Part shown: piece after piece, positions 351 to 30,292 of the stretch | How positions within the stretch are numbered: the first letter of the stretch is position 1 | Layout: each line of letters starts with the position of its first letter | Assembly (NCBI GenBank): GCA_016196885.1 | Contig: JACPWU010000046.1 | Location: 1-32,000 of the forward strand | Direction: 5' to 3' | DNA: 32,000 bases | Origin: Chlamydiota bacterium | GTDB taxonomy: Bacteria; Auribacterota; JACPWU01 | Notes under the pieces: model-generated | Databases searched by the model: none | Seen by the model: the letters and a program-made list of their open reading frames with translations, nothing else | Told to the model about the DNA's origin: nothing | Translations under genes and position numbers: made by a program

Positions 351-449
351 TTACAAGCAGGGGTTAAAAAGATCTCTTTCTAATAGAATATGAGCAGAGC
401 GTAAATTTTCTTGAGCATATTTCAACCATCTTTGTGCTTCATCTTTCAT
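351..449 (-). pseudogene. HEPN-domain protein, N-terminal remnant (32 codons, then the frame collapses)
   Basis: The minus-strand ATG at 449-447 overlaps the end of the nucleotidyltransferase ORF by 11 nt. The translation MKDEAQRWLKYAQENLRSAHILLERDLFNPCL-stop looks like the first helix of HEPN partners of minimal nucleotidyltransferases. Downstream frames carry stops and no HEPN-like sequence. Confidence 0.4.
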
Positions 450-744
450 AAACCACTTCTCCGCGTTTCACTTCAGAAAGAAAAGAATCATTTTCGACTC
501 CCATTCTGATGGGAAAAATATCTACAGCAATTCTGCGCGAAATAGGTCGAATGTCTTTACGATATTTTAAGGCCAAGGACAGATAAGATTGGTGACTATC
601 CTGAAAGACTGCAACATCTAAATCATGGGGATTTAAAGAATCCAAAAAAGAACCGAAGATTACAATTTTTCTGATTTCTTTTTCTACAGCTAAATATAAA
701 ACCAGATCTCTTTTTATCTCTTTTTTTTCGTCTTCTGTCAGCAC
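439..744 (-). CDS. minimal nucleotidyltransferase-domain protein (MntA-like antitoxin type)
   Basis: 101-aa ORF with the pol-beta-type NTase signature IVIFGSFLDSLNPHDLDVAVF (GS ... DxD), followed by a HEPN-like remnant. Confidence 0.8.
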   Translation of the reverse strand: MLTEDEKKEIKRDLVLYLAVEKEIRKIVIFGSFLDSLNPHDLDVAVFQDSHQSYLSLALKYRKDIRPISRRIAVDIFPIRMGVENDSFLSEVKRGEVVYER

Positions 745-807: not shown

Positions 808-1056
808 TTAAGAGTTCAATACCTGCATTCGATCTCGCAAAAATTCTGGAGCCAGATCAGCTCCATTTTTCCAGACCAGGGTTTCTAGTTCTGGATCTAC
901 TCGAAAGGATTTAAATCTTTTAATATTTTTTAATGGCTCAAACATCTCTCCATAGAGTTCGTCTTTTAAATCTACGATCCCTTCAGACCCGTCATTGAGC
1001 CGCAACCAAATCATATATTTTTTTTTATATTTTGCTTTTACAATATGTAAAATCAT
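808..1056 (-). CDS. DUF2442 domain protein
   Basis: 82 aa. The pattern LRLNDGSEGIVDLKDELYGEMFEPLKN...FRVDPELETLVWKNGADLAPEFL is typical of DUF2442. It sits directly downstream of a DUF4160 gene, the usual pairing. Confidence 0.85.
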   Translation of the reverse strand: MILHIVKAKYKKKYMIWLRLNDGSEGIVDLKDELYGEMFEPLKNIKRFKSFRVDPELETLVWKNGADLAPEFLRDRMQVLNS

Positions 1057-1060
1057 ATTT

Positions 1061-1321
1061 TCACTCTAAGGGTGGAATACAACGAAGAGGGCTCCTTTTT
1101 CTTGCCCGATCCCAATCATCCATCAACTCACTCAGATGAATTTTTCTCCACGCATTCACCAATCCCAAGGCTCGTTTGGACAAAGATCCTTTGATAATTT
1201 TTCCGCTTTCGATCTCAATCACGGCCTCCTCACCGCCATACTTGGCGTGAAAATGGGGTGGAGCATGATCATTCCAATAAATCGCAATGAGAATTCCGAA
1301 AAACCTACTAATGATTGGCAT
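1061..1321 (-). CDS. DUF4160 domain protein
   Basis: 86 aa. MPIISRFFGILIAIYWNDHAPPHFHAKYGGEEAVIEI matches the DUF4160 signature (dH-PPHfHa-Y). Confidence 0.9.
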   Translation of the reverse strand: MPIISRFFGILIAIYWNDHAPPHFHAKYGGEEAVIEIESGKIIKGSLSKRALGLVNAWRKIHLSELMDDWDRARKRSPLRCIPPLE

Positions 1322-1374: not shown

Positions 1375-4300
1375 TTACATGCTTTTTTCCGTCATCTCCG
1401 TCGTTTCACGAAATTTCTGCATCCTATCACGCCAATGGCTTACGCTTGTGAAGGGCGTGACTTGATGCTCGCCCAAATCCACAAGCAACCCTTTTAGCTC
1501 ATCAGCTTTAAAACCATGCTGAAGCAATGCTCGCGTCATTGCTTCGGCATCCCCATAACAAATAGCTGCCATCACGGAAACCATCTCTTGACCGTACATA
1601 AATTTATCAAAGAGCCCTTGAATGGGCTCGTACAAGTTTCTATTTTCACGATGCCCCAGCAGCCACTTTTCCACTTCCTTCCCCTGAAAAAGTTCCCTCA
1701 CTTTTGTATCAACTGCAGCTCTCGCATCCTGCTCATTCAAATCTGTCAGGAAAAGAACTCTATCTTGAGGAATGTGATGTTCCTTGCAAAGGGCATCAAA
1801 CTCTTCTCTAGATCTTTTTCGTTCCACAAAAACCATTTTGCGATTTTCTGTTCCAGATTCTTTAATGAATTCTGTCGGACTCAAGCCCCCCAAACTTTGA
1901 ACCAGTAAATCCATATCGGGGAATAGACACACAGGTTTTTGATCTGCAGATGGTTTTAAGGCCCCTAAAACTTTTTTCTGAAAATGACGAAGCTTTGTTT
2001 TTAATCCCATCAGATAAGCGAGGGCCAAAGATAAATCTTTAGGCCGTGACACTTGAACATGCGTAACACCCAGCGTCTCGGAATTCAATTGCTCAGTCAT
2101 CTCCCCTATTTCCATTTCAGATAACGCACCCTTCGTATCCTGTCTGATAGACCAGGTCACGTCTGAACTGAAATCAAGGGTAACCAAACCCTTCTGAAAC
2201 TCTCCTCTTTCTACCTTTCCTTCAAGCTCTTGTTCAACATTTCTAACTGTTTGATCTAACCCCTCCTCAGCCAGCAATCTCCTAGTCTCTAGCCCAAGAG
2301 AAAGTCTCTGGGCCTTTGCCTGAAAAGCCTTTGCCTGTTCAATAAGATCCGGATGTTTGACTTGGATCATGAGTTCGACCAGTGCAGCATCTAAAACGCT
2401 AAGATCATTTTCTGAGACAGCAAATGAACGTGTCCCCCTTCCCAACGTCCAAAGAATGTCATAAACCGTTTGGCTCTCCATCCACTCTTTGAGCGAAAGT
2501 CCACCCGTTATTTTCTCCTTTGCCCAGGATTCGAAAGAAAAAATTTCTTTCTTCTTCGTAATCAATATTTTGGAAGGAGCCGCACCACGCATAAAGCCAG
2601 GAGAGAGTAAATAGCTACCGTTGGCAAAAATCTTTGCATTCCCTCCGTGGTCTAGAAGCATCGCCTGAACACAACCTTTCTCGGCCGCAAGCTGAGCAAT
2701 TTCCCCAAGTGTCGTTCCTTCTCTGCCAGATTTTCCGCCATTGCCAAGAAGCACAAAACTCCCATCCTGAGTCACCCCAACAACCGTTCTAGGGTAAACT
2801 CCTTCCTTAAGGAAAATATCAATTCCATTCCCTTTAAAAGCAAATTCTCCTTTTCTTCGAACAGCCCCAGCTTCTTTTTCTTGATATCCCATTTTTTCTA
2901 AAAGCTTACGCAACACCTCTTGAGAAACTGCCTTCTCTTGAAACTCAATACGATCTCCCACTCTTAAACCTACTTTTACCTTAAGAGAAAGATGAATCGC
3001 ATGTATCCATGCCTCTTTTGCCGAGGCATAGTCATTTTCTGAAAGCTCAGATACGCCAAAATAGACTTCTCCTCGCGAGACTATTTCACCTTGAACATCA
3101 GAAATATCTTTAATGAAAATTCTAGGCAACTGAAAGACATGCCTTAAATCTTGAAACTGAGGAATAATATTTTCAATATCTTTCCGAGGATTTCCTCCAC
3201 CCTCTAGAAGAAATTGTCCAAACGTTACACCCTCAACTTCATCCGTAATATCCTGCCCCGCCATTAAAACCTGAATGCGAGCATCCTGCTGTGAATAGGT
3301 AACCTCCCCCATCTCAACTTTTCCATCCTTCTTAATCACAAGAGAACTATACGAATGAGCCGTTGGGTTTTCACTGTCTATATGAAAGAGTTGACCCTGA
3401 GTAAAAGTAACAAAACCTTGATTGAAGAAAAGACACGCATTGTCCGCAAAAGCGATCACATGAAGATCTGGATGTTCTGCTTCAAAAACTTTTACAGCTT
3501 CTTCGTCACTCCGTAAATGCTTTACAACTTCCTTAGGATCATTCGTGCGAACACCCCCTGGACCTGTATAAGTAAATGTTTGCGTATCGTGATCTGCAGT
3601 GATACGCCCCTGAAGATCGGCCTGAACAACCACATGCACTGCATACGCTTGAGGATTCACTTGCACCATTGCGATAGGGACCCCATTGGATGTGGCAGTG
3701 GTAGATATTTTAACTGGCTCTTCGACTGGAGAAAGAATAGGTTCTGGAATTCCTGCATTAATAAAAATTTGGAAAAGGGCCTGAGCTTTAGCCTCAGAAG
3801 ATCCAATAATTGCCGCTCTTATTTCAGACTCATTCGTAAATCGCCTCAATTGCTCTAATAAAGACTGAGAACCCCCTTCATGAGCGATTTGCAGCCATGT
3901 TCTAACCTGATTTTCATCGACACGATAATGAATGGGCCAAGGTAGTATATCTTTTAATTCTTTGAGCAATGAGTCCACAGATATTTCACCAACGCCCTTC
4001 CCCGCCATCGCCAAAGGCTTACTAATTTTTTGCGCAATCACCGCATCGTAGAAGCTATGGGCAAGGCCCACCAGCCCAAGAGCAGCTCCTATCGCAATCA
4101 ATGGGCCAAATGCAGTGAGTCCACCTACGAGAACGACATACGCCTGCCGAAGACCCAGGGCGATCACGAAAAGCCAGCCCCAATCTTTCCAAGTGGCCCT
4201 TGCTCCTTTTAACTCCAGTTTTCCATTCTCTCTCACCCACCGTTTCACTTCTGGATGGAACAAGGGAAACATCAAAGCACTGCCCCAAGAGCCCACATAA

Positions 4301-5427
4301 CGTCCCATCGAACGATCCACGCCAAAAAGATAATGCAAGGCAAGAGAAATTCCCTCTATCATCATCAATGAAAATAAAATTTCCTCCGTCCCGGAAAACC
4401 AGGCAATCGCTCGATCTGAAAAGCCCCATCGTTTTAAAAATTGATAATATCCTGACGCCAGCCCTAGGGAAGAAGCGCTGCCAAATGCTTCCCCATAAAT
4501 ACTCTTGACTTGCCTCGGACTTGATTCTAAGATTTTTCTCATGAATGAGAGAAAGACTCCAAAACCTATTCCTACTCCAGAAGAAACCCAGCGATACAAC
4601 TCCGTCATCATTGAGGAGATGAGAAGCCAATTTAAGGTTTTTGGCGAAGGACTCTCTGGACTGAGAGAGCGCATGGACCTGGGATTTGATGAGACCAGGA
4701 GAGAATTTTTAAAAATCGATAAGCGATTTGAAAAAGTTGACCAAAGATTTGCTAAAGCGGAAGAAACCCTTAAATTCCTTTCCTCTGGATTTTTAGAACT
4801 GAGCGACGGCCAAACCCGAACCCAATCCCAGCTCCAGAAATTAGATGAAAAAGTCTCGAAAATTGACTCTAGAGTCGCAAAGCTAGAAGAAAGCAACGCC
4901 CGTATTGAATCCGATATTCGCCTCATCAAAAACGACATCAAAGTTAAAGTAAGTTTAGAAGAATTTAAAGTGCTTGAAAATAGGCTTGCGATCGTTGAAA
5001 AAAGACTCGCTGCCCTTCCCATCTCTGCTTGATTAGCGCTATTTGAAATCCTTCTGGAACCCCCTATACTGCGTATCAAGCCATCCACATCCCCTTCATA
5101 TCCGCCTAACTCCAGCACTCTTTTCAGATAAATTTCTACGGGATGAGTGGTTTCTTTATCACTCAGAAAAAATCGCATCTGATCTTGCGTGAGCGTGGTC
5201 ACACGCTCAAGCCAGAGAAGAGGATTTTTCTGCAATTCTCCAGGAATTTGCAAATGATCGCCCTTAAGCACTTTTCGCTCTATTTCTCGAATAACCCCTT
5301 CTAAATCTCTCGCCCCCGCTTCCCCATATTCTAAATTAAGTTCTCGGGCCAAAGCTTCTTGATCCCTTTGCCATTGGTCAAATTGGAGAGCAGTGAGCCC
5401 CGCGGCAAGAGCAGCCTCTTCGCCCAA
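1375..5427 (-). CDS. giant multidomain membrane protein: CPBP/Abi-like TM module plus a phosphodiester glycosidase (NAGPA/DUF2233)-like domain; paralog of 22811..27523 in its N-terminal part
   Basis: Uninterrupted 1350-codon frame with a TTG start in the ORF track. CPBP-like motifs: EEILFS, FPLFH and HSFYD inside a hydrophobic block. NAGPA-like stretch: YPRTVVGVTQDGSFVLLGNGGKSGREGTTLGEIAQLAAEKGCVQAMLLDHGGNAKIF. Codons about 130-310 are Ser/Leu/Trp-rich low complexity, being the antisense of the ORF at 4541..5032, so it is uncertain whether one continuous protein is made. The first ~45 codons are homologous to the C-terminal tail of the 666-aa ORF (shared FDQW motif). Confidence 0.6.
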   Translation of the reverse strand: MGEEAALAAGLTALQFDQWQRDQEALARELNLEYGEAGARDLEGVIREIERKVLKGDHLQIPGELQKNPLLWLERVTTLTQDQMRFFLSDKETTHPVEIYLKRVLELGGYEGDVDGLIRSIGGSRRISNSANQAEMGRAASLFSTIASLFSSTLNSSKLTLTLMSFLMRRISDSIRALLSSSFATLESIFETFSSNFWSWDWVRVWPSLSSKNPEERNLRVSSALANLWSTFSNRLSIFKNSLLVSSNPRSMRSLSPESPSPKTLNWLLISSMMTELYRWVSSGVGIGFGVFLSFMRKILESSPRQVKSIYGEAFGSASSLGLASGYYQFLKRWGFSDRAIAWFSGTEEILFSLMMIEGISLALHYLFGVDRSMGRYVGSWGSALMFPLFHPEVKRWVRENGKLELKGARATWKDWGWLFVIALGLRQAYVVLVGGLTAFGPLIAIGAALGLVGLAHSFYDAVIAQKISKPLAMAGKGVGEISVDSLLKELKDILPWPIHYRVDENQVRTWLQIAHEGGSQSLLEQLRRFTNESEIRAAIIGSSEAKAQALFQIFINAGIPEPILSPVEEPVKISTTATSNGVPIAMVQVNPQAYAVHVVVQADLQGRITADHDTQTFTYTGPGGVRTNDPKEVVKHLRSDEEAVKVFEAEHPDLHVIAFADNACLFFNQGFVTFTQGQLFHIDSENPTAHSYSSLVIKKDGKVEMGEVTYSQQDARIQVLMAGQDITDEVEGVTFGQFLLEGGGNPRKDIENIIPQFQDLRHVFQLPRIFIKDISDVQGEIVSRGEVYFGVSELSENDYASAKEAWIHAIHLSLKVKVGLRVGDRIEFQEKAVSQEVLRKLLEKMGYQEKEAGAVRRKGEFAFKGNGIDIFLKEGVYPRTVVGVTQDGSFVLLGNGGKSGREGTTLGEIAQLAAEKGCVQAMLLDHGGNAKIFANGSYLLSPGFMRGAAPSKILITKKKEIFSFESWAKEKITGGLSLKEWMESQTVYDILWTLGRGTRSFAVSENDLSVLDAALVELMIQVKHPDLIEQAKAFQAKAQRLSLGLETRRLLAEEGLDQTVRNVEQELEGKVERGEFQKGLVTLDFSSDVTWSIRQDTKGALSEMEIGEMTEQLNSETLGVTHVQVSRPKDLSLALAYLMGLKTKLRHFQKKVLGALKPSADQKPVCLFPDMDLLVQSLGGLSPTEFIKESGTENRKMVFVERKRSREEFDALCKEHHIPQDRVLFLTDLNEQDARAAVDTKVRELFQGKEVEKWLLGHRENRNLYEPIQGLFDKFMYGQEMVSVMAAICYGDAEAMTRALLQHGFKADELKGLLVDLGEHQVTPFTSVSHWRDRMQKFRETTEMTEKSM
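4505..4533 (+). promoter_or_regulatory. candidate sigma70-type promoter for the embedded plus-strand ORF (TTGACT-17 nt-TAAGAT)
   Basis: TTGACT at 4505-4510, a 17-nt spacer, and TAAGAT at 4528-4533. The ATG at 4541 lies 7 nt after the -10 box and has no SD, which fits a leaderless or near-leaderless transcript. Confidence 0.35.
4541..5032 (+). CDS. coiled-coil protein embedded antisense within the giant ORF
   Basis: 163 codons from the ATG (the ORF track starts at TTG 4505). The composition is protein-like and heptad-like: LRERMDLGFDETRREFLKIDKRFEKVDQRFAKAEETL...LDEKVSKIDSRVAKLEESNARIESDIRLIKNDI...LENRLAIVEKRLAAL. The opposite-strand translation over the same bases is atypical (roughly 25% Ser, several Trp). 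Confidence 0.5.
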   Translation: MNERKTPKPIPTPEETQRYNSVIIEEMRSQFKVFGEGLSGLRERMDLGFDETRREFLKIDKRFEKVDQRFAKAEETLKFLSSGFLELSDGQTRTQSQLQKLDEKVSKIDSRVAKLEESNARIESDIRLIKNDIKVKVSLEEFKVLENRLAIVEKRLAALPISA

Positions 5428-5891
5428 AGAGCCTATTTCCTCAAGAAAGTGAAGCCTCGCGATTTTCTGAAGGGTCGGAAGTGAGGCCTCTTTAAGGCAT
5501 CAGGAGCGCCCGAAACAAATCCAAACTGCTCTTTCATCTTCCTAAAATAGGCGCTGCGATCATTATGACCCGTCATACGAGGCGCAATCACCCAATAACC
5601 GATCTTGGCCTCTTTCAATTTCTTCGTAATCCCTTCCGTATGAAACCCACCCACCACAAGCGCTGCACAGGTGAGTTTCTTTTCCTGAATAATTTCAAGA
5701 GACTTCTCGAACATGATTTGGTCTCGCTTCAGAACTTGGGCATAGAATTTTTGGGAGAGGACGAAGATCTCTCCAAAATCTTCAAGAATAGGGGATGATA
5801 GATTATTTGCTTCAGAATTGACTTCTTTTGTTAAGGTCTTCAGACGATAAAGGAAGTCTTTTACATATTCTTCTTCTCTTTGTGAGTCTTT

Positions 5892-6025
5892 CCTCCCCCT
5901 TATTTTTTTAAGGGGGACTGGGGGGGTTAACTCCTCTTCTTTCATAACTCCCCTAACCCCTCTCAAGCTTTTACAAGATTTTATAGTCCCCACGGGATAG
6001 TCCCCTTGGGATATCTTAAGAGGGG
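5892..6025. repeat. multi-hairpin palindromic element lying in frame inside the coding sequence (same family as 27979..28064 and 28326..28426)
   Basis: Hairpins CCCCCTTA-loop-TAAGGGGG, GGGGGTTAA...TAACCCCTC, and CCCCTCT...AGAGGGG. Translated as SPLK...LRGVRGVMKEEELTPPVPLKKIRGRK. Confidence 0.6.
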
Positions 6026-6925
6026 AAAAAGAACCACCCCATACAACTTTTACATCCCCCCTTTTCCCTTCCAAATTTACAATACGCTTCAACCGTCTAT
6101 AATCGTCCTGAAGTTGAAAAAGTTCTTTCTCTCGATCCTCTCTCAGCAACACTTTAAAGATTTTCTCTTCCACTTGATGAATTTCATTGTCCAACTGTGT
6201 CCATGAGATTTCACTTAAAAACTTCATTTGCTGAAACAGCAATTCCAAATTTTTGTATTTTTGTGAATCCTGAACTCTACTTAAATATTTACTTAAATAT
6301 AAATAATGTTCCTCATCGCTCACCTGTCCTAAGCGATGCTCTAATACTTGTCTCAAAAGTTCTTTCAATTCCTCTTTTGGAAGTTGCTTTTCTAACACTT
6401 CAAGAAATTCTAAATACTCACTCTCTAATTTCTTATGGTTTGTATCCATTTCCAAAGCTTTCAAGGTTTGAAATTTTCCTAACACCGGATTTCTTTCACC
6501 TATTTTTTCTGAAATACTCTCTCGTATAATCCCACCAAATAAGAAACATATGCATCCATGCCTAATTTCAATGTTTCGTAATTTTCTTTCTTTTTCATCA
6601 ACTCCTGAATCTCTTCAGAATAAATTTTCTCTGACAACTTTTGAAATACATGCTCCAAATCCTGCCAGACCTGTTCTTGCCGCCCCTTTTCCTCCAAAAG
6701 CTCACCCATCACTTTGAGGTTCTGAACATAATCAGGCAAATTTTCGACGCCCACCCCTTTCACTTTTTCAGGGCCCTGCTCAATGAGAAAAGCTTCTACC
6801 GCATCCAATTCATTTTTATCCAAGAATTTCTTTAGGCAAGAGGTCAACACCTTTTGATCCGGAAAGGACCAAAAAAAGGACATGTCCATGTCTTTGCTGG
6901 CGGCTTCGGAGAGAACATAAAAAAG

Positions 6926-6989
6926 GCTGGGGAGCTAGGAGGCTAGAGGACTTCCTCTCCCTAGCTTCCCAGCTTCCTAACTTCCTAGC
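6926..6989. repeat. inverted repeat built from 8-nt units (GCTRGGAG arrays facing CTCCYAGC arrays), inside the coding sequence
   Basis: gctggggagctaggaggctagagga / tcctctccctagcttcccagcttcctaacttcctagc. Equivalent element at 29086..29157. Translated as KLGSWEARERKSSSLLAPQ. Confidence 0.7.
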
Positions 6990-7529
6990 TCTGATTGTCA
7001 TTTCTTCTAATATTTCCAATATCCTTTTGATATTCCCTTGTGCTTCAGCATTACAATGAATGTCTTCAATGATAAAAACATGAGGTTGACCTGGAACTGT
7101 GAATGGGTCTATCACTTCTCCAATGGAGGAAGAAAGGTGAAAAGTCTCAAAAGAAGGTTTTAGCTTCCCATATTTGAGAGAGGACGTTCCCTGAGTAGGA
7201 GTTAGAGTTTTTAGAGGGGTTATAAATTGTGAATCTTAGCCCAACGCATAGGAAAAATCGTAGAACAGAAAGGAAATACAAATAAATAGGCTTATGAACG
7301 ACTGAAGACATCGTTTGCGCCCTTTTTGACAAAGCCTCATAAATCCCCCCAGCCTCAGTGTCCTATTATAAAGACGCAATTGAAGGCTCAAATGCCAAAA
7401 AAATAACGTCAAATTGACCCTTCAGTACCCCTTAAACTCCTATTTTTTACCTAAGTCAAAAAAAGAGTAGACTTTTTTATACTTTGGTATAAACTGTAAG
7501 AGATCGTCGGAAACCTTTGGAAAAGTGAT

Positions 7530-8728: not shown

Positions 8729-10363
8729 ATGACCCTCTCAAAAAAACATCTTTTTTCACTTCTCTTCATTGTTGTCGTCATCCTGATTGCTTACGCCAAC
8801 AGCTTCCAGAACCACTTTGTTTGGGACGATGACCTGCTCATTGTTCAAAATCAATACCTTCAGAGTCCTCATCACATCTCCAACTTTTTCACAGAAAATA
8901 TTTTTAAGGGTTCAGATCACGAAAGCAATTTTTGGAGGCCTTTACAATTGATCAGTTTCTTCATGGATCAAAAAATCTGGGGAGCAAATGCTTACGGATT
9001 TCATTTAACGAATCTTTTACTGCATATCCTTGCATCCTTAGAGGTTTATCTGTTTATCTTTCTTCTCTTTCGAAGAAAGGGTCTGGCCCTTCTCACCAGC
9101 CTTTTATGGGCCCTACACCCCATTCAAACGGAAGCTGTCACTTATATTTCAGGCCGCGCAGATCCTCTGGCTGCCTACTTCATCCTTTCATCTCTTTGCC
9201 TGTATCTCTATCATCGTCAAAGAGCATCACTTCTTGCCTATCTGGGAAGTCTTATTTCATTTGTTCTTGCTCTTCTCTCCAAAGAAATGGCACTTATGCT
9301 TCCGGTTTATCTTATGCTGTTCGAAACGGTCCTTTATCAAAAGGGAGAAAAAAAATTCTGGAATATTTTTTTAAGATTACTTCCCTTCATCTCAATTGTG
9401 TCACTATATATAAGCCTTCGTCTGACAGTTCTTAACTTCTCAGACAGTCCCCTGATCCAAGATAATCCCTTTCGCCTCATTCCTCTTCCATTAAGACTGC
9501 TCACTTTCACCAAAACCCTTTTTGGCATTTCGTTTAATTCCATCACCCATCACTGGGAAACAGGCTATTTTTGGCTTCTTCTTTTTCCCTTTAATCTTCA
9601 CATGGAAAGAAGCACCGCTTACGCCAAAAGTTTCTTTCAATGGCCCTATCTTTCAACCCTCATCCTTTTTGGAATATGGATATTTGCCCTCTTTCGAACC
9701 TCTCAGAAATCTAAACTTCAATTTTTTGGCCTAACCCTTTTTCTCATCGCCCTTCTGCCTTTTTCAGACCTTATCCCCCTCAACGCAAACATGGCAGAGC
9801 ATTGGCTGTACATTCCTTCTATCGGAATTTTTCTCATCTTGTCTGATTTAGTCTTCCAAGGGTTCAAAAAATATCCAATCACAGTTTCATGCCTTTTCAT
9901 CCCCTATCTCCTCTATCTCGGAACAACAACCTATTTTAGGAATCAAGATTGGAAAGATGAAATGACAATTTGGCAGCAAACGGCAGAACTCTCACAGAGC
10001 TCTCACATCCATGGAAATTTAGCAGTTGCTTATGGCCGGCAAGGAAATCTTCAAAAAGCAGAGAAAGAACTTAAAAAAGCCGTCGCACTACAATTTAATT
10101 ATCCCGAGGCCCACAACAATCTCGGGCTCCTTTATATTGCCAAAGGAAATTTAACGGAAGCTCTCCAAGAATTTTCCTGGGCCATTCAATTTAATCCCAC
10201 CTATTCCAATGCCTATAAAAATCTGGGAGACGTTTATGAGGCCATGAACAATTTAGACGAAGCAAAGAAAATGTGGAAAAAAGCACTTGAAATCAATCCA
10301 ATGAATGAAGGAGCGAAGGAAAAACTAAAAAAATCATCTCACCAACCCCTCTCCACCACCTAA
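8729..10363 (+). CDS. polytopic membrane protein with C-terminal TPR repeats (TMTC/PMT-like glycosyltransferase family)
   Basis: N-terminal FVWDDDLLIVQN ... FWRPLQLISFFMD ... HLTNLLLHIL ... HPIQTEAVTYISGRADPLA with many TM segments. C-terminal TPR units (AEKELKKAVALQFNYPEAHNNLGLLYIAKGNLTEA...). Confidence 0.8.
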   Translation: MTLSKKHLFSLLFIVVVILIAYANSFQNHFVWDDDLLIVQNQYLQSPHHISNFFTENIFKGSDHESNFWRPLQLISFFMDQKIWGANAYGFHLTNLLLHILASLEVYLFIFLLFRRKGLALLTSLLWALHPIQTEAVTYISGRADPLAAYFILSSLCLYLYHRQRASLLAYLGSLISFVLALLSKEMALMLPVYLMLFETVLYQKGEKKFWNIFLRLLPFISIVSLYISLRLTVLNFSDSPLIQDNPFRLIPLPLRLLTFTKTLFGISFNSITHHWETGYFWLLLFPFNLHMERSTAYAKSFFQWPYLSTLILFGIWIFALFRTSQKSKLQFFGLTLFLIALLPFSDLIPLNANMAEHWLYIPSIGIFLILSDLVFQGFKKYPITVSCLFIPYLLYLGTTTYFRNQDWKDEMTIWQQTAELSQSSHIHGNLAVAYGRQGNLQKAEKELKKAVALQFNYPEAHNNLGLLYIAKGNLTEALQEFSWAIQFNPTYSNAYKNLGDVYEAMNNLDEAKKMWKKALEINPMNEGAKEKLKKSSHQPLSTT

Positions 10364-22598: not shown

Positions 22599-22814
22599 TT
22601 AAACATTCTCCAGAAGAGAACTGATCTGTTTACGGCGAGTCTCCAATTCATCCAATTCGAAAAAGTCTTCCCAACCCTCTTCTTCGCGAATCTTACCCGA
22701 TTGTATGAATTGATCCAACTGAAACACATCTTTTACTTCATGACGAGATGCAATTCTAAAAATCTCCGATTCCACATGACGCAACTGTTGCTCCAAATAA
22801 GTCCGCAGACTCAT
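22599..22814 (-). CDS. small acidic hypothetical protein, start overlapping the giant ORF stop (ATGA)
   Basis: 71 aa. ATG 22814-22812 overlaps TGA 22813-22811. No family recognised. Confidence 0.5.
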   Translation of the reverse strand: MSLRTYLEQQLRHVESEIFRIASRHEVKDVFQLDQFIQSGKIREEEGWEDFFELDELETRRKQISSLLENV

Positions 22815-25800
22815 TTGACACGGATTTGGTCTTTTTCGCCGCCCATAACTAAAACAAGATTTCCTGCAATATCATTTTGATTAGTCATGGGCCAAAAATC
22901 TGAATCTTTTAAACCATGTTGATCTTTATCTACATCCCCTTTTGCGTCAAAGAAACGAGCATCTATTTTCATTTGCCTTAAGAAATGTACCATAGCCAAA
23001 ACTTCTTGAGCCCGTTCAGGATTCTCAAGCGACCTTACATCAAATGCAAATTTGAGAGGCACTCTTAAATCTGTGATCCTGCCTTGAATCGCCTTTTTTA
23101 AATTTGCCTTCAAGCTCCAAAGCTTTTTCACAGAAAGTGCAGCCCCCAAGCCCCATCTCATTTTTTCTTGAGGAGAAAGATCAGAAGAAGCCACTTCTAC
23201 ATGAACACTCGCGTCTCGAAGACTCAAAGCATCTCTCAAGGAAGTATCCAACGTTACAGAATCTTCGGAAATTCCAGCAGCCTCTTCACTCAAAGCTCGT
23301 ACTTCCCCGTCGCGAATGTTTAAAACAATCCCTTCTTTATGCGTAAAAGTGTCTCCTGCCAAACGCTCCATTCTCTGAACTTGATCTGCTACACCCGTCT
23401 GAGCAAACCCATACATCATGCGAAGCTCTAAAGCTAAACGCTGTATTTCCCCTCCTCTCTGCTCATATATTGAAAGACTCAATTCTTCTATTAAAACATC
23501 CAGCGTATTGCGCGATAGACGAGGATGATCACGTAGATATTTATCCAAAATATCTGCGAATGTCCTAAGAACTTCTGCATCTGAAATATCTCTGCGAGAT
23601 AAATAATCATCGAAGGCCCTATTTTCTATCAACGCATCATTATCTGTCAACCAGCCCATAAACTTGAGCATAACTCTTTGACGGAGGTCTAAAAAGTAAA
23701 GACTCCTGCTATCCAACAGCCTATGAACTAGAGAAACATCTTCATCTCTCATTTGCTTGACCAACCTAGATTCAGACGACAAAGTCTCAAGAAATGCTGT
23801 TTTGAAATCATCTGAATTCTCTATAAGACTTATATCTTGCACGAGACCTGTCCTTAAAATCTCAATATCTTGATATGTCAAAACTCCATGCAACTCATCG
23901 CCTTTTTTACTCATCTCATGCATAGCCTCATGCGAAGTGCCATAAATCCAGTCGGCTTGGCGATGTTCTTGAGGAATGTTGGTGAGATGCTTTAGATTAA
24001 CGAAAAATTTCCCATCGCCCACACAGTTTCCGTAGGGCGAGCGAAAGTCATAACCCTCTTTGAGATGCTTTTCATCTCCAAAATAAAAGGTGTATTCCCC
24101 ATCCGCTAAAGTTGTTGTTTCAAATTCTAAATCCTCTGCCCTTGCTCGAATAAAATCGCCCCATTTCTTCAGGAACTCTTGCTCTTGATCCGCTTTAATT
24201 CCTAAAAGTCGATAGAGCGCTTTTTTCTCATCAGAATCGGGAACACTAAACTGGCCGTCCGTCACTGTTATTGTGATCGGGTTGCCATCCAAGAGTATAT
24301 TCACCTGAGCCATTTCTTGAGAAGGATATTCTAAGTCCGACCTGTTCTGAGCGTCAAAATGGGCGTATGATCCCCCTTCAACAAGAACATTCTTCTCAGT
24401 GTCATACCTCACACTGATTTGCTCTAAATATTTCTGAAACGCCTGCTGAACGTTACGTAACAATTGCCAATCCTGATCTGTCAAAGGAACACTCACAACA
24501 TTTTGATTATGCTCATGTTGTGTTCCTCTTAGCTCGCTCCATTTATTGAGAGAGGGATAGAGCCTTGTGTATTTTTCAGGATAACCGGCCAGATAGCCTG
24601 CGAGTTCGATTAACTCTGTATCTGAAAGACCTTTTAAATCCATTGGGTAGGTTTTCACTTTTAGAATTTGCCATCCCGTCCCTTCAAAAGTCTTTTGTGC
24701 CGTGGCTCCCACCCGCAATAAGAGCGGAGGAGAAGTGACCAATTCCACTTTAAGATCAGAACGGCCGAGAAAAAGTCTCTCGACCCCTTGTTTGCTGTTG
24801 ACCAAAGTATCCACCGTCACGCGTGATGGTTGTTCTTCTATATGAATCAATTCAGGCTCATCAAATTTAGATAAAATCCCTTCTTTTTCAAAACAAAATT
24901 TTAGGATATCCGATTCTAAAAAACTTTCATCCGTGATACCTTTCTCCAACCGCTTCTTCTCAGCAGGAGTTAATGTTCCCAAAGCTTCATAGTGGACAAT
25001 GGTTTTTTCTATCAAAGGAATCGTTCCTCTTCCTCGGCCAGCAGCGATGACAATGGGAATACGCAGGCCTCTCTCATCTCGAATTCCCTTCCATGTATTC
25101 GCAAACTCTATAAAAGCTCGAAGATCCGGATTTCCTAAAGCGAGAAAAACATCCGGTAACTGATCCGAAAGTTCATCTCCTTGCGAAAGAAAATCCACGT
25201 AATCTTGAAAAACTGTTTTGAAATTTTCCCTTGCTTCCTGCAAAGGTTCTTTTCCTAAAGCAACAGTATCACTGAAAAATTTCCGCTCCTCAGGCGTTCC
25301 ATGATCACGAAGCCAACCCTTAACGTACCCCTCAGATTCGTCATATCCTCTCTGAGCTAGCTCTAAAATTTCTCTTTCCTCCCAACGAGACGCTATAGCA
25401 CCTATAAATTCAAAAACCTGAACTGTATTTTTTTTCCCAAGACGTCTAGAAATCTTACCTAGTACAGAACATACTGGTTCTTGAAGATAAACCTTTTGTT
25501 TTTCCTCCTCTGAAATTTCATCTCCTATGGCCAAGCGCGCAGAAATACCCCCCACGCCTCCAGTCTGCATAAGTTTCCGCTGATTCGCGCTCGATCTTCC
25601 CTGAATAACCGGACTCCCTCGTTCCTGAAGCGCTTCCAAAATCCCAAAATGAGCTGCACCATAAAGCAATATGACCGCATAACCTTTCTGCGATGCTTCT
25701 AAAACCTGTTCGACGATGCGACGATTCCTATTAGTCGCATACACGCTCCAAGCACTAACAACTTCATCCATCCATTGAAAATATTGAAGGCTTTGTTCTG

Positions 25801-27523
25801 GTGTTCTAAGGCCAGTAGAAAAAAAATACTCCAAAGCCCGTGTCCTTCTTCCTTCCTTCCAGAAGCCGGACAACCAATCTTGGAACTGAATGTCCTCAAG
25901 AATAACCCTCGTATGTGTTTGAGCTATCCATTGCATGAGCATTGCTTCAAAATCTGAAACACATTTTTGAACCCAGTTAAAAACAACCCCGCTGTTTAGA
26001 ATAGACTCGTATGCCTTTCTCATAGCCTGAAGTTGAAAATCAAAATGATGCCTCTTCAATACATTCTCAATGAAATCAGGGATTTGTTCCACCGTCTTAA
26101 TAAATTCGTCTGGTAATAAAGATAAAAGAGAACGATATTCTCCTGAAATGTCTGCTGGACTAAGCCGGGCAGGTCCACCATTGTCTAATATCAAAACAAG
26201 TCTCCGCCCTTCTTCACTGGCCTTACGCCTTGCTTCTTCTAAATCTGGAAGATGCTTTTCAAAATCCTCCTTCGATTGATTAGCCATTGCAATGTATGTA
26301 ATGGAACCTGGTGGAATGCCTGCAGAGGTATCTATTTTTTTAGGCATTTGTAGCTTTTTTCTATTCCATTCATTCACCAAATTCGCGATACGACCAGCCG
26401 GAGCATTTCCTCCTGTAAAATCTAAAACTCTGAGTATTTTCTGAACAATCTTTGTATTTAACGCTTTTCCCTGGCTCCTGGTTAAAAGTTCTCTGAGCTG
26501 GCGATCTAAGTCCGCGTCACTTGATCTTTTTTTCCGTTTAATCCCATTGACTTTTAAAATCTCTCGTTTCAGTTTTTGAAAATCATCATCTGCTAATACC
26601 AACTGATAGGGTTTCGGCATAACGAGGTTATAAATCACATGCCCCGCATACGCCCACAAAGCCTGATTCCACCCCGAACTCCCTTTAGAATATTCAGCAA
26701 ATTTGTCGAAGAAACTCAAACTCTCGGGATCAAAAGAAGCAAGCGCTACGGGAAGTAAACTACTGATGAGAGTGGCAGCAAACCAACGAACTAAAAATTG
26801 TGTGAACTTTTCTTTAGTAGTTAATCCCGGTGGCGCATGAATCAAATGAATCAGGGCAAAAATGAAAGCCCCCACCGGAATCCCCCACACGCCCAATACC
26901 GGCGCCAAAAAACGCGCAAACCCCGGCAAGCCCAAAAGTTCTAACGCTGGAATTACACCTACTCTCACCCAGCGCTTCTTTAAAATCTCATCAGCCCTGG
27001 CCTGGGCCTTATCTTTCTCCATTCCACCCAGCCTCAGAACTCCGTCTAGAACCCAGTTCCAGAGGGGGAGAACGAGTTGAGATAAACCATCTTCCGCCAA
27101 CCCTTCTTGATCCATAGGTAAGCTGATCCTTACAAGATCTTTTTTCTCCAAGCCAGGGGGTCGCGATACTTCCACCTCACTTGATCCAGTTTCACTTGGT
27201 GCAGCGGACACCACCCCTACCATTTCTCCCATCAACTGAAGCGTTCTAACCCCTAGAAAATTTTTTGAATTTCTTTTCCCATCTTTAGCGTCGCCTCCCA
27301 CATATTTCTCCATCAAATCACGAAACTCTTCATATCCCTCCCCCAAAGATTCTTTTAAATAGGCCTCTGTCAATTTTTGAATCGTTCCACCCTCATGCAA
27401 AAGTTGATTCATTTGTTTCAATTTATTGGTTAATTCTGGATCTAAAATGGAGCTTGTCGAATGCCCATGTTTTTTTTGAGCGCTTGAATCACAGGTTTTA
27501 GAGAGGGAACTGATTTTTCCCAT
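22811..27523 (-). CDS. giant multidomain membrane protein: CPBP/Abi-like TM module, TraB/GumN-like C-half, DUF218/YdcF-like domain, HExxH motif
   Basis: 1570-codon frame. CPBP-like FIFALIH and AGHVIYNLV sit in a hydrophobic block. TraB/GumN-like NRNRRIVEQVLEASQKGYAVILLYGAAHFGILEAL. DUF218-like DVFLALGN...IPIVIAAGRGRGT...ESDILKFCFEKEGI...IHIEEQPSRVTVDTLVNS...VELVTSPPLLLRVG. Zincin-like GTSHEAMHEM. The first 27 codons overlap the upstream ORF; an alternative start is ATG 27412 (MNQLL). Confidence 0.75.
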   Translation of the reverse strand: MGKISSLSKTCDSSAQKKHGHSTSSILDPELTNKLKQMNQLLHEGGTIQKLTEAYLKESLGEGYEEFRDLMEKYVGGDAKDGKRNSKNFLGVRTLQLMGEMVGVVSAAPSETGSSEVEVSRPPGLEKKDLVRISLPMDQEGLAEDGLSQLVLPLWNWVLDGVLRLGGMEKDKAQARADEILKKRWVRVGVIPALELLGLPGFARFLAPVLGVWGIPVGAFIFALIHLIHAPPGLTTKEKFTQFLVRWFAATLISSLLPVALASFDPESLSFFDKFAEYSKGSSGWNQALWAYAGHVIYNLVMPKPYQLVLADDDFQKLKREILKVNGIKRKKRSSDADLDRQLRELLTRSQGKALNTKIVQKILRVLDFTGGNAPAGRIANLVNEWNRKKLQMPKKIDTSAGIPPGSITYIAMANQSKEDFEKHLPDLEEARRKASEEGRRLVLILDNGGPARLSPADISGEYRSLLSLLPDEFIKTVEQIPDFIENVLKRHHFDFQLQAMRKAYESILNSGVVFNWVQKCVSDFEAMLMQWIAQTHTRVILEDIQFQDWLSGFWKEGRRTRALEYFFSTGLRTPEQSLQYFQWMDEVVSAWSVYATNRNRRIVEQVLEASQKGYAVILLYGAAHFGILEALQERGSPVIQGRSSANQRKLMQTGGVGGISARLAIGDEISEEEKQKVYLQEPVCSVLGKISRRLGKKNTVQVFEFIGAIASRWEEREILELAQRGYDESEGYVKGWLRDHGTPEERKFFSDTVALGKEPLQEARENFKTVFQDYVDFLSQGDELSDQLPDVFLALGNPDLRAFIEFANTWKGIRDERGLRIPIVIAAGRGRGTIPLIEKTIVHYEALGTLTPAEKKRLEKGITDESFLESDILKFCFEKEGILSKFDEPELIHIEEQPSRVTVDTLVNSKQGVERLFLGRSDLKVELVTSPPLLLRVGATAQKTFEGTGWQILKVKTYPMDLKGLSDTELIELAGYLAGYPEKYTRLYPSLNKWSELRGTQHEHNQNVVSVPLTDQDWQLLRNVQQAFQKYLEQISVRYDTEKNVLVEGGSYAHFDAQNRSDLEYPSQEMAQVNILLDGNPITITVTDGQFSVPDSDEKKALYRLLGIKADQEQEFLKKWGDFIRARAEDLEFETTTLADGEYTFYFGDEKHLKEGYDFRSPYGNCVGDGKFFVNLKHLTNIPQEHRQADWIYGTSHEAMHEMSKKGDELHGVLTYQDIEILRTGLVQDISLIENSDDFKTAFLETLSSESRLVKQMRDEDVSLVHRLLDSRSLYFLDLRQRVMLKFMGWLTDNDALIENRAFDDYLSRRDISDAEVLRTFADILDKYLRDHPRLSRNTLDVLIEELSLSIYEQRGGEIQRLALELRMMYGFAQTGVADQVQRMERLAGDTFTHKEGIVLNIRDGEVRALSEEAAGISEDSVTLDTSLRDALSLRDASVHVEVASSDLSPQEKMRWGLGAALSVKKLWSLKANLKKAIQGRITDLRVPLKFAFDVRSLENPERAQEVLAMVHFLRQMKIDARFFDAKGDVDKDQHGLKDSDFWPMTNQNDIAGNLVLVMGGEKDQIRVK

Positions 27524-29442
27524 TGATCAAATTCTTGAGAAGAAAGATTAGCCTTCTGAAGCATTTTTTCTCCTAGGCCTTCCATTACTTCATAAAATCC
27601 CTCTTTCGATGGCTCTTCTATAAATTCATTAAATTCTTTCATTTTTTGAAAATAAACGCGGCGATCATCTATTTTTTCTGAATGGGGGGCAATGACGCAG
27701 TAGCCCATCTCAGCTTCTTTTAATTTTTCTTTGAGGGCATCTGTATGAAAACCTCCGACGACGACAGCGGCATTTTGAAGTTTCTTTTCTTTGATCTCTT
27801 GAGAAAGTTTCTGATAGAAAATTTTGTCTCGATCAAGCACTTTTTTGTAAAACTTTTTGGCGGTCTGGAAGATGTTTTCAAAGTCAGGGGATTCGAAAGA
27901 GAGGTTATTTTCTTCGCACAACTTTCTTAAGGCTTGAGAAAAGTTTATTACGTACTCTTCTTCTCTTTGTGAGTTTTTCCTCCCCCTTATTTTTTTAAGG
28001 GGGATTGAGGGGGTTACTTCCTCCTCTTTCATAACTCCCCTAACCCCTCTTAACTTAAGAGGGGAACGAAGGCCACTCCATATAGCTTTTAAATCTTCTC
28101 TCTTTCCCTCCATCGATATCACTCGCTTCAAAACAGTGTAATCATTTTCAAGCTTCAGCAGTCTCTTGATTTCCTTTTCATTTCCTTTTCCCCTGTACGC
28201 TGAACGCTCTACGCTGCCCGCTAATTTTTCAACCTCTGAGTCCAATTTTTCCCATGAGATTTTTTTCATAAGGGACATCTGCTCGATAAAAAATTTGAGA
28301 TTGGGATAGAGTTCTTTTTGTTTTTCCCTCCCCTTAATATAAGGGGAGCCGGTGGGGTTATTGACTTCTTCCATAACTCCCCCTACCCCTAACTCCCCAG
28401 GCCCCTCTTTAAAAAAAAGAGGGGGGACGTTCTCTTCATGTTCTGGTTCTAGATATTTACTTAAGAAAAGATAATGCGCTTCATCCCCAATTCTCCCCAA
28501 ACGATGTTCCAGCACATTTTTCATCACTTCGTTAAGTTCTTCTTTCGTCAACTGTTTCTCTAATGTTTGAAGAAATGAAAGATATTCGCTTTCGACTCTC
28601 GACATATCTGTTTTCTTCTCAAGAGTTTGAAGTTTTAAATAAAGACTTATTTGAGGAAAATCCTCTTCTAACTTCAAACCTCTAACATTTAACTGCTGTA
28701 GATATTCCCCCATTCCAATTTTGAAATCTTCATATTGCTTCTTTTTTTTCATCAACTCTAAAAGTTCTTGAGGATAAATTTTTTCTCTCAAACTTTGAAA
28801 CAATTCTTCCAAATCGCTCCACACATGCTCTTGAAGTTCTCGCTCTTCCATCAATTCATTCATGAGTTTTACATTCTCAAGATAGGGCTGAAGTTCTTCA
28901 ACGCCCAAACCGATTGCTCCACCAGTTTTTTCTCCCATTAAAAAGGACTCCACGCCATTGATGTCTCTATCCTGAATGAACTGATCTTGAACCAAAGGCA
29001 GTATTTCTTTTTTTGGAAAAGCTGTAAAAAAACTCATGTCCATCCATCCCGTCGCAGCCTCGGAAAAAACACAAAAAGACTGGCTGGAAAGCTGGGAGGC
29101 TAGGAGGCTGGGAGAAAGCTTTTGCTGTTTAGCTTCCCAGCTCCCCAGCTTCCTAGCATCTTTTGTTTCTTCCTTCAACACCTTCAATATCCTCGCTATG
29201 TTCCTCTCAACCTCTGGATTACAATGAATATCCTCAATTAAGAAGACGGTAGGATTCCCCGATAAAAGCACTTGATCTGTGATTTCTCCCATATCTGCAG
29301 GGATTGGGTTGGAATTCAAGAACATGTCCGGCTGGGAGGGGAGATAAGTCTTAATTGCTTGATGTGGAATGGGTTGTGAATAAGGCTCTATTTGTTGACT
29401 CCAACTTGGTTGAATATCATAAGAGACAAAGCAAAGACACAA
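27442..29442 (-). CDS. Tiki/TraB/ChaN-superfamily protein (intact paralog of 5433..7332)
   Basis: N-terminal VFLIEDIHCNPEVERNIARIL (ChaN/erythromycin-esterase-type GE-H-N motif). C-terminal LDRDKIFYQKL...AAVVVGGFHTDALKEKLKEAEMGYCVIAP (TraB/GumN-type motif). The track start is TTG. An ATG at 29470 with a hydrophobic leader lies one frame off. Confidence 0.75.
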   Translation of the reverse strand: MCLCFVSYDIQPSWSQQIEPYSQPIPHQAIKTYLPSQPDMFLNSNPIPADMGEITDQVLLSGNPTVFLIEDIHCNPEVERNIARILKVLKEETKDARKLGSWEAKQQKLSPSLLASQLSSQSFCVFSEAATGWMDMSFFTAFPKKEILPLVQDQFIQDRDINGVESFLMGEKTGGAIGLGVEELQPYLENVKLMNELMEERELQEHVWSDLEELFQSLREKIYPQELLELMKKKKQYEDFKIGMGEYLQQLNVRGLKLEEDFPQISLYLKLQTLEKKTDMSRVESEYLSFLQTLEKQLTKEELNEVMKNVLEHRLGRIGDEAHYLFLSKYLEPEHEENVPPLFFKEGPGELGVGGVMEEVNNPTGSPYIKGREKQKELYPNLKFFIEQMSLMKKISWEKLDSEVEKLAGSVERSAYRGKGNEKEIKRLLKLENDYTVLKRVISMEGKREDLKAIWSGLRSPLKLRGVRGVMKEEEVTPSIPLKKIRGRKNSQREEEYVINFSQALRKLCEENNLSFESPDFENIFQTAKKFYKKVLDRDKIFYQKLSQEIKEKKLQNAAVVVGGFHTDALKEKLKEAEMGYCVIAPHSEKIDDRRVYFQKMKEFNEFIEEPSKEGFYEVMEGLGEKMLQKANLSSQEFDQWEKSVPSLKPVIQALKKNMGIRQAPF
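27979..28064. repeat. multi-hairpin palindromic element in frame within the CDS (family copy)
   Basis: cctcccccttatttttttaaggggg / gagggggtta...ctaacccctc / cccctcttaacttaagagggg. Translated as SPLKLRGVRGVMKEEEVTPSIPLKKIRGRK. Confidence 0.65.
28195..28222. repeat. array of four 7-nt units inside the CDS
   Basis: gtacgct gaacgct ctacgct gcccgct. Translated as AGSVERSAYRG. The paralog has unrelated sequence at this position. Confidence 0.6.
28326..28426. repeat. multi-hairpin palindromic element in frame within the CDS, absent from the paralog
   Basis: ccctccccttaatataagggga ... ggtggggtta...ccctacccct ... cccctctttaaaaaaaagagggggg. It corresponds to a ~36-40 aa insertion (NVPPLFFKEGPGELGVGGVMEEVNNPTGSPYIKGREK) relative to the 350-aa paralog fragment. 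Confidence 0.7.
29086..29157. repeat. inverted repeat of 8-nt units in frame within the CDS
   Basis: gctgggag gctaggag gctgggag - aaagcttttgctgttt - agcttccc agctcccc agcttcct agc. Translated as KLGSWEAKQQKLSPSLLASQLSSQ. Confidence 0.75.
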
Positions 29443-29675
29443 AATGACACTGATGAGTTTTTGAACTCATTTCATAAAAATGTCTTTACCTCTATAAAAA
29501 TTCATAACTTATTTATATACAAAAAGATACGACATTATTATTTTTTAAAAAACAAGGCCGCACGAGATTATCATTCAATGAGAATAGACATTTTATGAAG
29601 GGGAAAGGTCAAAGGAGAAAAAATGTGATTTTGGATTTTAAATAGGATAGAATGACTCTTAGTAAGGAGTTTTTC

Positions 29676-29966
29676 ATGCCTCTCTACGAGTTTCTCAAGA
29701 AAAGAAGAAATGACATCCTTCAAGCTGCTCTGCGACATGGGGCAAAAAACGTACGCTTGTTTGGCTCGGTTACACGTAAAGAAGAAAATACCCAAAGTGA
29801 CATTGACCTTCTCGTCGAAATGGAAAAAGGGAGAAGTTATCTTGACTTAGTTGAGTTATGGCAAGAATTAGAGGAACTTCTTGGGAAGAAAGTAGACCTT
29901 CTGACAGACGGAGGGATCAGTCCTTATTTAAAAGATCGCATTTACTCTGAAGCCATTCCCTTATGA
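29676..29966 (+). CDS. mntA: nucleotidyltransferase antitoxin (MntA type)
   Basis: RLFGSVTRKEENTQSDIDLLVEM (GS-x10-DxD). Start set at ATG 29676, preceded by AAGGAG at a 6-nt spacing (the track start 29652 is also possible). The stop overlaps the hepT start (ATGA). Confidence 0.85.
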   Translation: MPLYEFLKKRRNDILQAALRHGAKNVRLFGSVTRKEENTQSDIDLLVEMEKGRSYLDLVELWQELEELLGKKVDLLTDGGISPYLKDRIYSEAIPL

Positions 29967-30292
29967 AGGACAACTCCCTTTATCTTCTGCATATTCGAGA
30001 CGCACTCGATCTCATCCTGGAATATGCTTCTTCAGGGAAAGAGTTTTTCATGCAAGATAAGAAAACTCAAGATGCAATCATTCGCAATCTTGAAATTCTT
30101 GGAGAAGCAACGAAAAATATCCAGGAAGATTTTAGACAAGTGCATTCAGAAATTCCTTGGAAGGCTTTGGCCGGAATGAGAGATAAACTAGCCCATGATT
30201 ATTTTGGCGTTAATCTTGAGATTGTATGGGAAGTTGTGGACAAAAGAATTCAAGAACTTAAGGAAAAGATTAATAACCTTTTAAACAACTGA
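29963..30292 (+). CDS. hepT: HEPN/DUF86 toxin (HepT type)
   Basis: 109 aa with the Rx4HxY motif (MRDKLAHDYFG) and the typical IIRNLEILGEA segment. Confidence 0.88.
   Translation: MKDNSLYLLHIRDALDLILEYASSGKEFFMQDKKTQDAIIRNLEILGEATKNIQEDFRQVHSEIPWKALAGMRDKLAHDYFGVNLEIVWEVVDKRIQELKEKINNLLNN

Follow-up and report, generated by a model that had tools for sequence, protein, structure and literature searches.

A candidate coiled-coil protein gene nested antisense within a giant open reading frame of a Chlamydiota bacterium

The nested open reading frame and its putative promoter

The locus described here lies on contig JACPWU010000046.1 of the Chlamydiota bacterium assembly GCA_016196885.1 (GTDB phylum Auribacterota). 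Positions 1 to 32,000 of the forward strand were analysed, and this 32,000-nucleotide (nt) stretch is termed the window. In it, a plus-strand open reading frame (ORF) that encodes a small coiled-coil protein, 4541..5032(+), lies wholly within a giant ORF of the opposite strand, 1375..5427(-). The features of the overlap are listed here, with protein lengths in amino acids (aa).

4541..5032, plus strand: nested gene, ATG start, 163 aa followed by TGA; coiled-coil protein with a basic N-terminal tail
4505..4510, plus strand: putative -35 box TTGACT, from the sequence, a consensus scan and a (near-)identical hexamer at equal distance in 8 related copies
4528..4533, plus strand: putative -10 box TAAGAT, separated by 17 nt from the -35 box and by 7 nt from the ATG
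1375..5427, minus strand: host ORF, 1350 aa, open through the whole region, with an annotated TTG start
4504..5040, minus strand: host-frame stretch rich in Ser, Leu, Phe and Trp, approximately host aa 130-308; mirror of the nested gene and its promoter

The initial annotation of this DNA had described a coiled-coil ORF embedded antisense in a giant ORF that it does not close, and the coordinates and the content agree with that description. If read from a TTG start, the same plus ORF spans 4505..5032 and 175 aa. The translated sequence from the ATG displays VIIEEMRSQFKVFGEGL, repeats of the RF-x-x-VD type and the C-terminal motif RIESDIRLIKNDIKVKVSLEEFKVLENRLAIVEKRLAA.

A homology search with the nested protein returned three small homologues at E values from 3e-19 to 3e-11. 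Small homologues encoded elsewhere had been anticipated, and some of those found are free-standing genes with antisense stops. A profile search of a database of 1.8 billion representatives yielded 7,695 proteins at E ≤ 1e-3, of which 644 reach E ≤ 1e-10; among the best profile hits the full-length matches are mostly 100-170 aa long, and this large family extends to distant phyla. In the alignment its hallmarks are a basic N-terminal tail, the sequence VxLEDMRSQFKVFGEAL, RFxxVD repeats and a C-terminal K-V-D-x-E-E-F/V helix. The nested protein conforms to the family patterns V-[IVL]-[LIV]-E-[ED]-[MIL]-R-[SAG]-Q-F-K-V-F-G-E and, at the C-terminus, K-V-[DS]-x-[ED]-E-[FV]. An AlphaFold2 model built with a 22-sequence alignment consists of one long helix (residues 13-136) and a second helix (139-158), with a pLDDT of 90.6. 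Pfam, NCBIfam and PHROGs contain no model of the family and give only generic coiled-coil matches below their cutoffs, thus no function can be assigned to the nested protein. The neighbourhoods of distant family members are inconsistent and include recA, a Ser/Thr kinase and bactofilins. A GC-rich family member is located directly 3' of recA on two independent metagenome contigs (L017, 1904-2416, and L018, 3252-3764).

Substitutions were compared among five PVC-type copies, i.e., loci from the Planctomycetes-Verrucomicrobia-Chlamydiae (PVC) group that share the C-terminal sequence KVKVxxEEFKxLE. Over 83 ungapped codons there are 301, 192 and 460 differences at plus codon positions 1, 2 and 3, respectively, and the plus frame surpasses the minus frame in both identity and BLOSUM score in 10 of 10 pairs. 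An overlap-aware count of nonsynonymous (N) and synonymous (S) change in the two frames gives a dNN/dSN of about 0.20 for the plus frame and a dNN/dNS of about 1.0 for the minus frame; these values are rough, with saturated synonymous sites, and are given only as ratios between site classes. Codon-usage log-odds trained on the other genes of the window are positive for the plus frame alone from approximately 4520 to 5060, where the minus frame is negative. Other plus ORFs inside the giant gene (1516..1908, 3517..3858 and 4200..4508) have negative codon scores and junk-like translations and were discarded. No Rfam family matches at the gathering threshold anywhere in the window. On comparative sequence grounds, the plus ORF is a real gene under protein-level purifying selection and belongs to an old, widespread and uncharacterised family.

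A promoter of the form TTGACT-17-TAAGAT with the ATG 7 nt further on had also been proposed for this ORF, and it is present. Taken alone, the hexamer match is at chance level in the window (2 promoter-like sites vs 1.9 expected), but its geometry recurs in other copies. Eight related copies retain [TCG]TGAC[TC]-17 nt-TAnnAT-7 nt-ATG, with 9-10 nt before the ATG in two of them. The spacer and the short leader differ in sequence among these copies, and the leaders have no Shine-Dalgarno sequence. Conserved hexamers and spacing around variable intervening sequence are the signature of a functional promoter. In the window copy the 7 nt ahead of the ATG are pyrimidine-rich and likewise without a Shine-Dalgarno sequence. 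The 17-nt hexamer spacing and a start codon at the expected transcription start point to a sigma-70-type promoter. Since only 7 nt separate the -10 box from the ATG, transcription is expected to start at the ATG itself, and the mRNA made from TTGACT-17-TAAGAT is probably leaderless or near-leaderless, with a transcription start predicted from this spacing.

The host frame across the overlap

The two frames are aligned such that position 3 of the plus codons is also position 3 of the minus codons, and minus-strand stops are possible only at T|CA, T|TA and C|TA junctions of the plus codons. Because the third positions are shared, host stops arise only before Gln, His or Tyr codons. The nested protein has 8 such at-risk junctions. 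All seven of its Gln codons are preceded by a C-ending codon, as had been noticed at the outset, and the single Tyr codon is preceded by CGA.

The sister metagenome-assembled genome (MAG) GCA_016178055.1, termed L001, has an intact 3123-aa ORF with a 164-aa antisense copy of the gene in the same frame relation. The permutation test that had been suggested for antisense stop avoidance was applied to both copies. Given the plus protein and the codon usage of the genome, the probability that the minus frame is open is 0.025 for the window copy and 0.071 for the L001 copy; when codon context is taken into account, the values are 0.003 and 0.004, respectively. For the window copy the context-aware value is lower because in background genes T often precedes CAN codons (47-51%) and C rarely does (13-15%). 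Across copies, antisense stops occur at 0 of 32 at-risk junctions in six open copies vs 4 of 17 in three free-standing PVC-type copies; the copies share ancestry, such that junction counts are not independent, and one of the six, the second L001 copy, is a segmental duplicate of the first.

The base before CAN is nearly always C in the open copies, and the host codon is then TGG (Trp), as in a minimal T-to-C fix of TGA. Given a host-frame ratio of about 1, such a fix explains the Trp codons more simply than would selection that favoured Trp over Cys. Tyr, His and Gln together make up 9.3% of residues in background genes, against 2-5% in the open copies and at most 5.9% in the free PVC-type copies. 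Taken together, codon and junction statistics indicate that the host frame is kept open and that stop avoidance is stronger than composition explains. The free PVC-type copies, with antisense stops at 24% of junctions vs about 50% expected, may fit recent escapes from nesting.

The host-frame translation of the overlap includes ALLSSSFATLESIFETFSSNFWSWDWVR. The initial annotation had called this translation an atypical Ser/Leu/Trp-rich sequence, which its composition bears out: opposite the plus ORF the host stretch has 23% Ser, 14% Leu, 7% Phe and 4.3% Trp, and neither Cys nor His, vs 6.4% Ser in the remainder of the host protein. The mirror stretch of the window is 45-46% identical to aa 2193-2365 of the L001 3123-aa ORF. 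On either side of the nested gene the host frame has positive codon log-odds, +0.38 in 5040-5427 and +0.19 in 4102-4540, with controls from the same gene at +0.32 to +0.34.

The palindrome CATG contains both the plus ATG (4541-4543) and a minus ATG that is in frame with the host (4542-4540), so that the two are divergent and overlap by 2 nt. Phe-Met is found at the same host-frame point, i.e., at the CATG site, in the nested copy of L001 and in L011, another copy. The only GGAG near the minus ATG at 4542 is 14 nt upstream, and there is no Shine-Dalgarno sequence at a proper distance.

Other host segments, together with the region upstream of the host ORF, are as follows.

2542..3675, minus strand: conserved NAGPA-containing core, 44% identical to the 1742-aa homologue P0005
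4036..4380, minus strand: predicted transmembrane helices (aa 350-370 and 416-464; Kyte-Doolittle), directly after the passenger stretch opposite the nested gene
5040..5499, minus strand: host-frame flank upstream of the nested gene, coding-like, with no stop of its own
5433..7319, minus strand: pieces of the ancestral giant gene's N-terminal domain, in at least three frames (tblastn, BLASTP), paralogous to the ORF 27442..29442

The NAGPA domain occupies aa 871-943 of the host protein, and an identical protein, P0004 (GCA_016178005.1, contig JACOUD010000031.1), is annotated as a 'phosphodiester glycosidase family protein'. CPBP/Rce1-like motifs suspected by eye in the host beside the segment found no support in Pfam.

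Upstream of the host ORF, the ORFs 5433..6485 and 6500..6889 share 44-47% identity with more N-terminal segments of the 666-aa ORF 27442..29442. The first 33 codons of the host-frame flank (5499..5400) align to aa 616-648 of the same ORF with 36% identity, at an E value of 7e-6 in a very small search space. The 1742-aa P0005, from another MAG (GCA_964451625.1), has the NAGPA core and the N-terminal domain on a single polypeptide and is collinear with window positions 7319..2542. Thus the ancestral host was one gene of approximately 2000 aa. In the window, frame changes are located near 6950, 6490 and 5495, the last about 70 nt before the annotated TTG start; they may be real mutations in a decaying giant gene or indel errors of the MAG.

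The initial annotation had contrasted the host with a paralogous giant protein that lacks the segment. This comparison does not hold as stated, since the 1570-aa ORF 22811..27523 and the 1350-aa ORF have no BLASTP match at E < 0.01; paralogy was found only between the ORFs upstream of the 1350-aa ORF (5433..6889) and 27442..29442. The informative comparator without the segment is P0005, and the P0005 locus has no copy of it. The presence and absence of the segment among giant ORFs, which was to be checked, is as follows: present in the L001 3123-aa ORF and absent from the collinear P0005.

The 666-aa and 1570-aa ORFs, both on the minus strand, overlap by 82 nt in different frames. The layout of 22811-29442, an N-terminal-domain ORF followed by a large ORF, is the same as that of the locus studied here, and a frame change may be a recurrent feature (coupling or a programmed shift) rather than damage. 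Toxin-antitoxin-like pairs of small genes are found at 439-744 (-), about 1000-1320 (-) and 29652-30292 (+), and comprise a nucleotidyltransferase-like ORF with a partner as well as DUF4160/DUF2442 and Polbeta genes immediately downstream of the giant ORF. The neighbourhood in the window is rich in accessory or mobile-type genes.

Nested, free-standing and partial copies elsewhere

The copies of the gene are homologous from the -35 box through the stop codon but not beyond. A transposable element, or a cassette resembling a miniature inverted repeat transposable element, was considered and rejected: flanking repeats do not exceed chance, and homology among copies is confined to the interval from the -35 box to the stop codon.

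L001 carries a second copy (10001-10336) that is in frame just past the stop of the giant ORF (10387), and this copy is a segmental duplicate that includes host flanks. It is internally deleted, and the downstream hydrophobic host segment is duplicated as well (81-86% nt identity), such that L001 9177-10390 looks like a tandem duplication of a 3' module with a recent stop. In this second L001 copy and in L011 the antisense frame is open over the gene only and closed on both sides.

Two further copies occur together with parts of an intein splicing (Hint) domain. In L003, a contig of 1223 nt, one minus frame is open from end to end, antisense to the coiled-coil gene and to DUF433 and DUF5615, and the N-terminal part of a Hint domain is encoded between the coiled-coil gene and the DUF433/DUF5615 pair. 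L003 may thus be a Hint domain that carries antisense passenger genes. In L007 (1-1931 of a contig from a Planctomycetia MAG), the N-terminal part of a Hint domain (PF14890 positions 32-99), homologous to the Hint part of L003, leads into the antisense of the coiled-coil gene. The copy sits at the usual insertion point of the intein endonuclease; the ORF then stops, and an IS4-type DDE transposase is next. It should be noted that the Hint matches in L003 and L007 are partial, with E values for PF14890 of about 1e-6 that are below the Pfam gathering score. A Hint context for the hosts in the window and in L001 was also considered and set aside, since Pfam gives no Hint hit there and BLASTP with the Hint parts of L003 and L007 finds nothing. 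Continuity of the open frame with coding flanks, as seen in the window, is repeated in L001, L003 and L007.

Antisense stops inside the gene are found in the three free PVC-type copies (L012, L013/14 and L015) and in the GC-rich relatives L004 and L002. A genome-collection scan based on the family alignment yielded no confirmed relative; one based on a back-translated DNA pattern gave one true match (L007) and three chance matches, and a scan of metagenomes gave one distant GC-rich relative (L002).

Interpretation and comparison with known systems

The explanation that is considered probable is that of a functional antisense gene inserted in the giant ORF, with the host stretch opposite to it a passenger linker. 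The plus ORF would be an independently transcribed gene for a small coiled-coil protein, located antisense inside a giant gene of the membrane-associated phosphodiester glycosidase family, and the conserved unit would be a minimal cassette that extends from the -35 box to the stop codon. The host ORF would read through this cassette in the third-position-aligned antisense frame, which few Tyr, His and Gln residues, and a stop-avoiding base at every junction of the open copies (mostly C, turning TGA into TGG), would leave open. The host stretch of approximately 170 aa would then be a linker dictated by the nested gene, and staying open would be its only detectable constraint. The most economical origin would be for a cassette of promoter and ORF to have entered the giant gene, by insertion or by recombinational capture. 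Antisense stops may have been purged before or after insertion, and selection on the two strands would since have preserved the arrangement. Transcription from the internal promoter would converge with that of the host and yield RNA complementary to the host mRNA, and mutual interference is possible.

Several observations weigh against this explanation. The overlap-aware ratios are rough, given the saturated synonymous sites, and the junction counts come from related copies. No terminal repeats or target duplications above chance surround the cassette. The host flanks of the window and of L001 have no detectable similarity, and common ancestry of the nesting is therefore inseparable from independent insertion. 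The frame breaks upstream make it uncertain whether the host is translated across the overlap today; it may have become a pseudogene recently, or its start may lie past the nested gene, at the ATG at 4542, and the open frame would in either case be a relic. The transcription start, the translation of either frame, the mechanism of insertion and any regulatory interplay are inferred from sequence.

The initial annotation had offered three readings of the locus: an insertion that stayed open, a true antisense pair, and two minus-strand genes split by a third gene. The first two stand and are not exclusive of each other; the last finds little support. A serious rival, because of the upstream frame breaks, is one in which the coiled-coil gene is functional but the host is a decaying pseudogene or is expressed only from a downstream start, e.g., the ATG at 4542; there is perhaps one chance in a few that this is so. 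The Ser/Leu-rich stretch would then no longer be translated, and its open frame would be left over from an earlier nested state that was functional. The break of the ancestral upstream part into at least three frames, with the last break about 70 nt from the TTG start, would fit such a history, as would the overlap of the in-frame minus ATG with the plus ATG and the lack of constraint on the host frame. However, a stop-free ORF of 4 kb is not expected to last long in a pseudogene, and the flank 5040-5427 scores as coding as do the controls. The sister MAG retains its intact 3123-aa ORF through its own copy, and the ATG at 4542 has its nearest GGAG 14 nt upstream, not at the spacing of a Shine-Dalgarno sequence.

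The arrangement could also be three ordinary genes, two on the minus strand that flank one on the plus strand, with the continuous frame a coincidence of a coiled coil poor in Tyr, His and Gln. Synonymous changes alone suffice to clear stops from a position-3-aligned antisense frame, just 8 junctions of the nested protein are at risk, and L011 and the second L001 copy are open over the gene but closed on both sides. This reading is nevertheless unlikely. It is disfavoured because the upstream part is stopless, coding-like and homologous to the tail of the 666-aa ORF, and because the nesting is intact in L001; an upstream minus gene would have to do without a stop codon. The probabilities of an open frame (0.003-0.025 here, and similar in L001) also oppose it, as do the absence of stops at all 32 junctions against a background of about 50% T, and the recurrence of frame continuity with coding flanks in L001, L003 and L007.

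Less probable still is that only the giant minus gene is real, with the plus ORF a by-product of a Ser/Leu-rich domain and the hexamers present by chance. The chance-level hexamer match agrees with this, and so does the 45-46% identity of the Ser/Leu-rich stretch between two giant ORFs. However, homologues of the plus protein include free-standing genes with antisense stops and a large family in distant phyla, and the shared motifs EEMRSQFKVFGE and KVKVxxEEFKxLE argue against matches that are coiled-coil artefacts. Substitutions follow the plus frame, codon usage favours it, and the promoter geometry is conserved in 8 copies. The possibility raised in the initial annotation, that the plus ORF is a by-product while the minus segment is conserved at the protein level, is excluded by the many plus homologues and the minus-frame ratio of about 1.

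An extension of the inserted-gene explanation is more tentative. The promoter-plus-ORF unit could be a 'frame-preserving' cassette that has repeatedly colonised very large ORFs of the PVC group in antisense, although this is doubtful at present, and it is a similarly speculative suggestion that its hosts include giant surface or membrane proteins as well as Hint or intein-like domains. Such a self-contained cassette would be tolerated because of its pre-adaptation to be stop-free in the host frame, poor in Tyr, His and Gln and with C before every CAN codon. If so, this would be a novel form of concealment of one gene within another. Hint domains would be possible safe harbours, the internal antisense promoter would be a built-in control of the host, and the free copies, with 1-2 antisense stops each, may be recent escapes from nesting.

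The locus is of interest because, among bacteria, long antisense gene pairs with good support are rare and contested, and in most of them the embedded partner is young and without relatives. Here the two strands can be told apart cleanly on comparative evidence alone: the gene inside is old and, like its promoter, conserved, and the host frame is unconstrained yet actively kept stop-free. This reversed polarity suggests that a pre-existing gene can lodge in a giant ORF at the cost of a junk linker, by a rule that can be tested: third positions in register, a scarcity of Tyr, His and Gln, and TGG in place of TGA. There are also consequences for annotation. Gene callers report the giant ORF only (PGAP in this case), and members of the nested family are systematically missed. 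The Ser/Leu/Trp-rich stretches of giant proteins in such genomes may mirror hidden genes and not domains.

No report of the nested family or of this arrangement was found in the searchable literature, and the nearest known systems each share only part of it. Leaderless genes are normally intergenic. The nested gene resembles those of bacteria in a -10 box 7 nt from the ATG and in the lack of a Shine-Dalgarno sequence, both conserved across copies and with the start predicted, and differs from the usual leaderless gene in that it sits inside the coding sequence of another gene. Homing endonucleases of inteins share the strand and the frame of their host gene, and protein splicing takes them out. 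As with these, insertion here would be tolerated because the frame stays open, and the L003 and L007 cassettes lie in ORFs with part of a Hint domain; unlike these, the gene is on the opposite strand, and neither the window host nor the L001 host has a detectable Hint domain.

In a position-3-aligned antisense frame, stops are rare and removable by synonymous changes. The host frame has this alignment, sas12 in the OLGenie nomenclature. 'Shadow' ORFs are long open frames opposite real genes that result from reading-frame statistics (PMC3454372). The host frame is like them in being the position-3-aligned antisense frame, but unlike them it is continuous with coding sequence on both sides, inside an annotated ORF of 1350 aa (or 3123 aa), and its stop avoidance goes beyond composition (P of 0.003-0.025; 0 of 32 junctions).

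The closest parallels are long antisense overlapping genes within annotated bacterial genes. Examples are olg1 and olg2 of Pseudomonas aeruginosa, embedded ORFs that are described as evolutionarily novel (PMC8850804), and similar antisense genes in E. coli O157:H7 (PMC9927249; reviewed in PMC7457138). The locus resembles these cases in having an ORF of approximately 0.5 kb wholly inside a longer gene of the opposite strand, with promoter-like signals and purifying selection. In the P. aeruginosa and E. coli O157:H7 pairs, the host is reportedly the older, conserved gene. Here the polarity is reversed: the embedded gene is the old and widespread one, with free-standing members, the host frame is a passenger, unconstrained apart from staying open, and unrelated host ORFs carry the same nesting.

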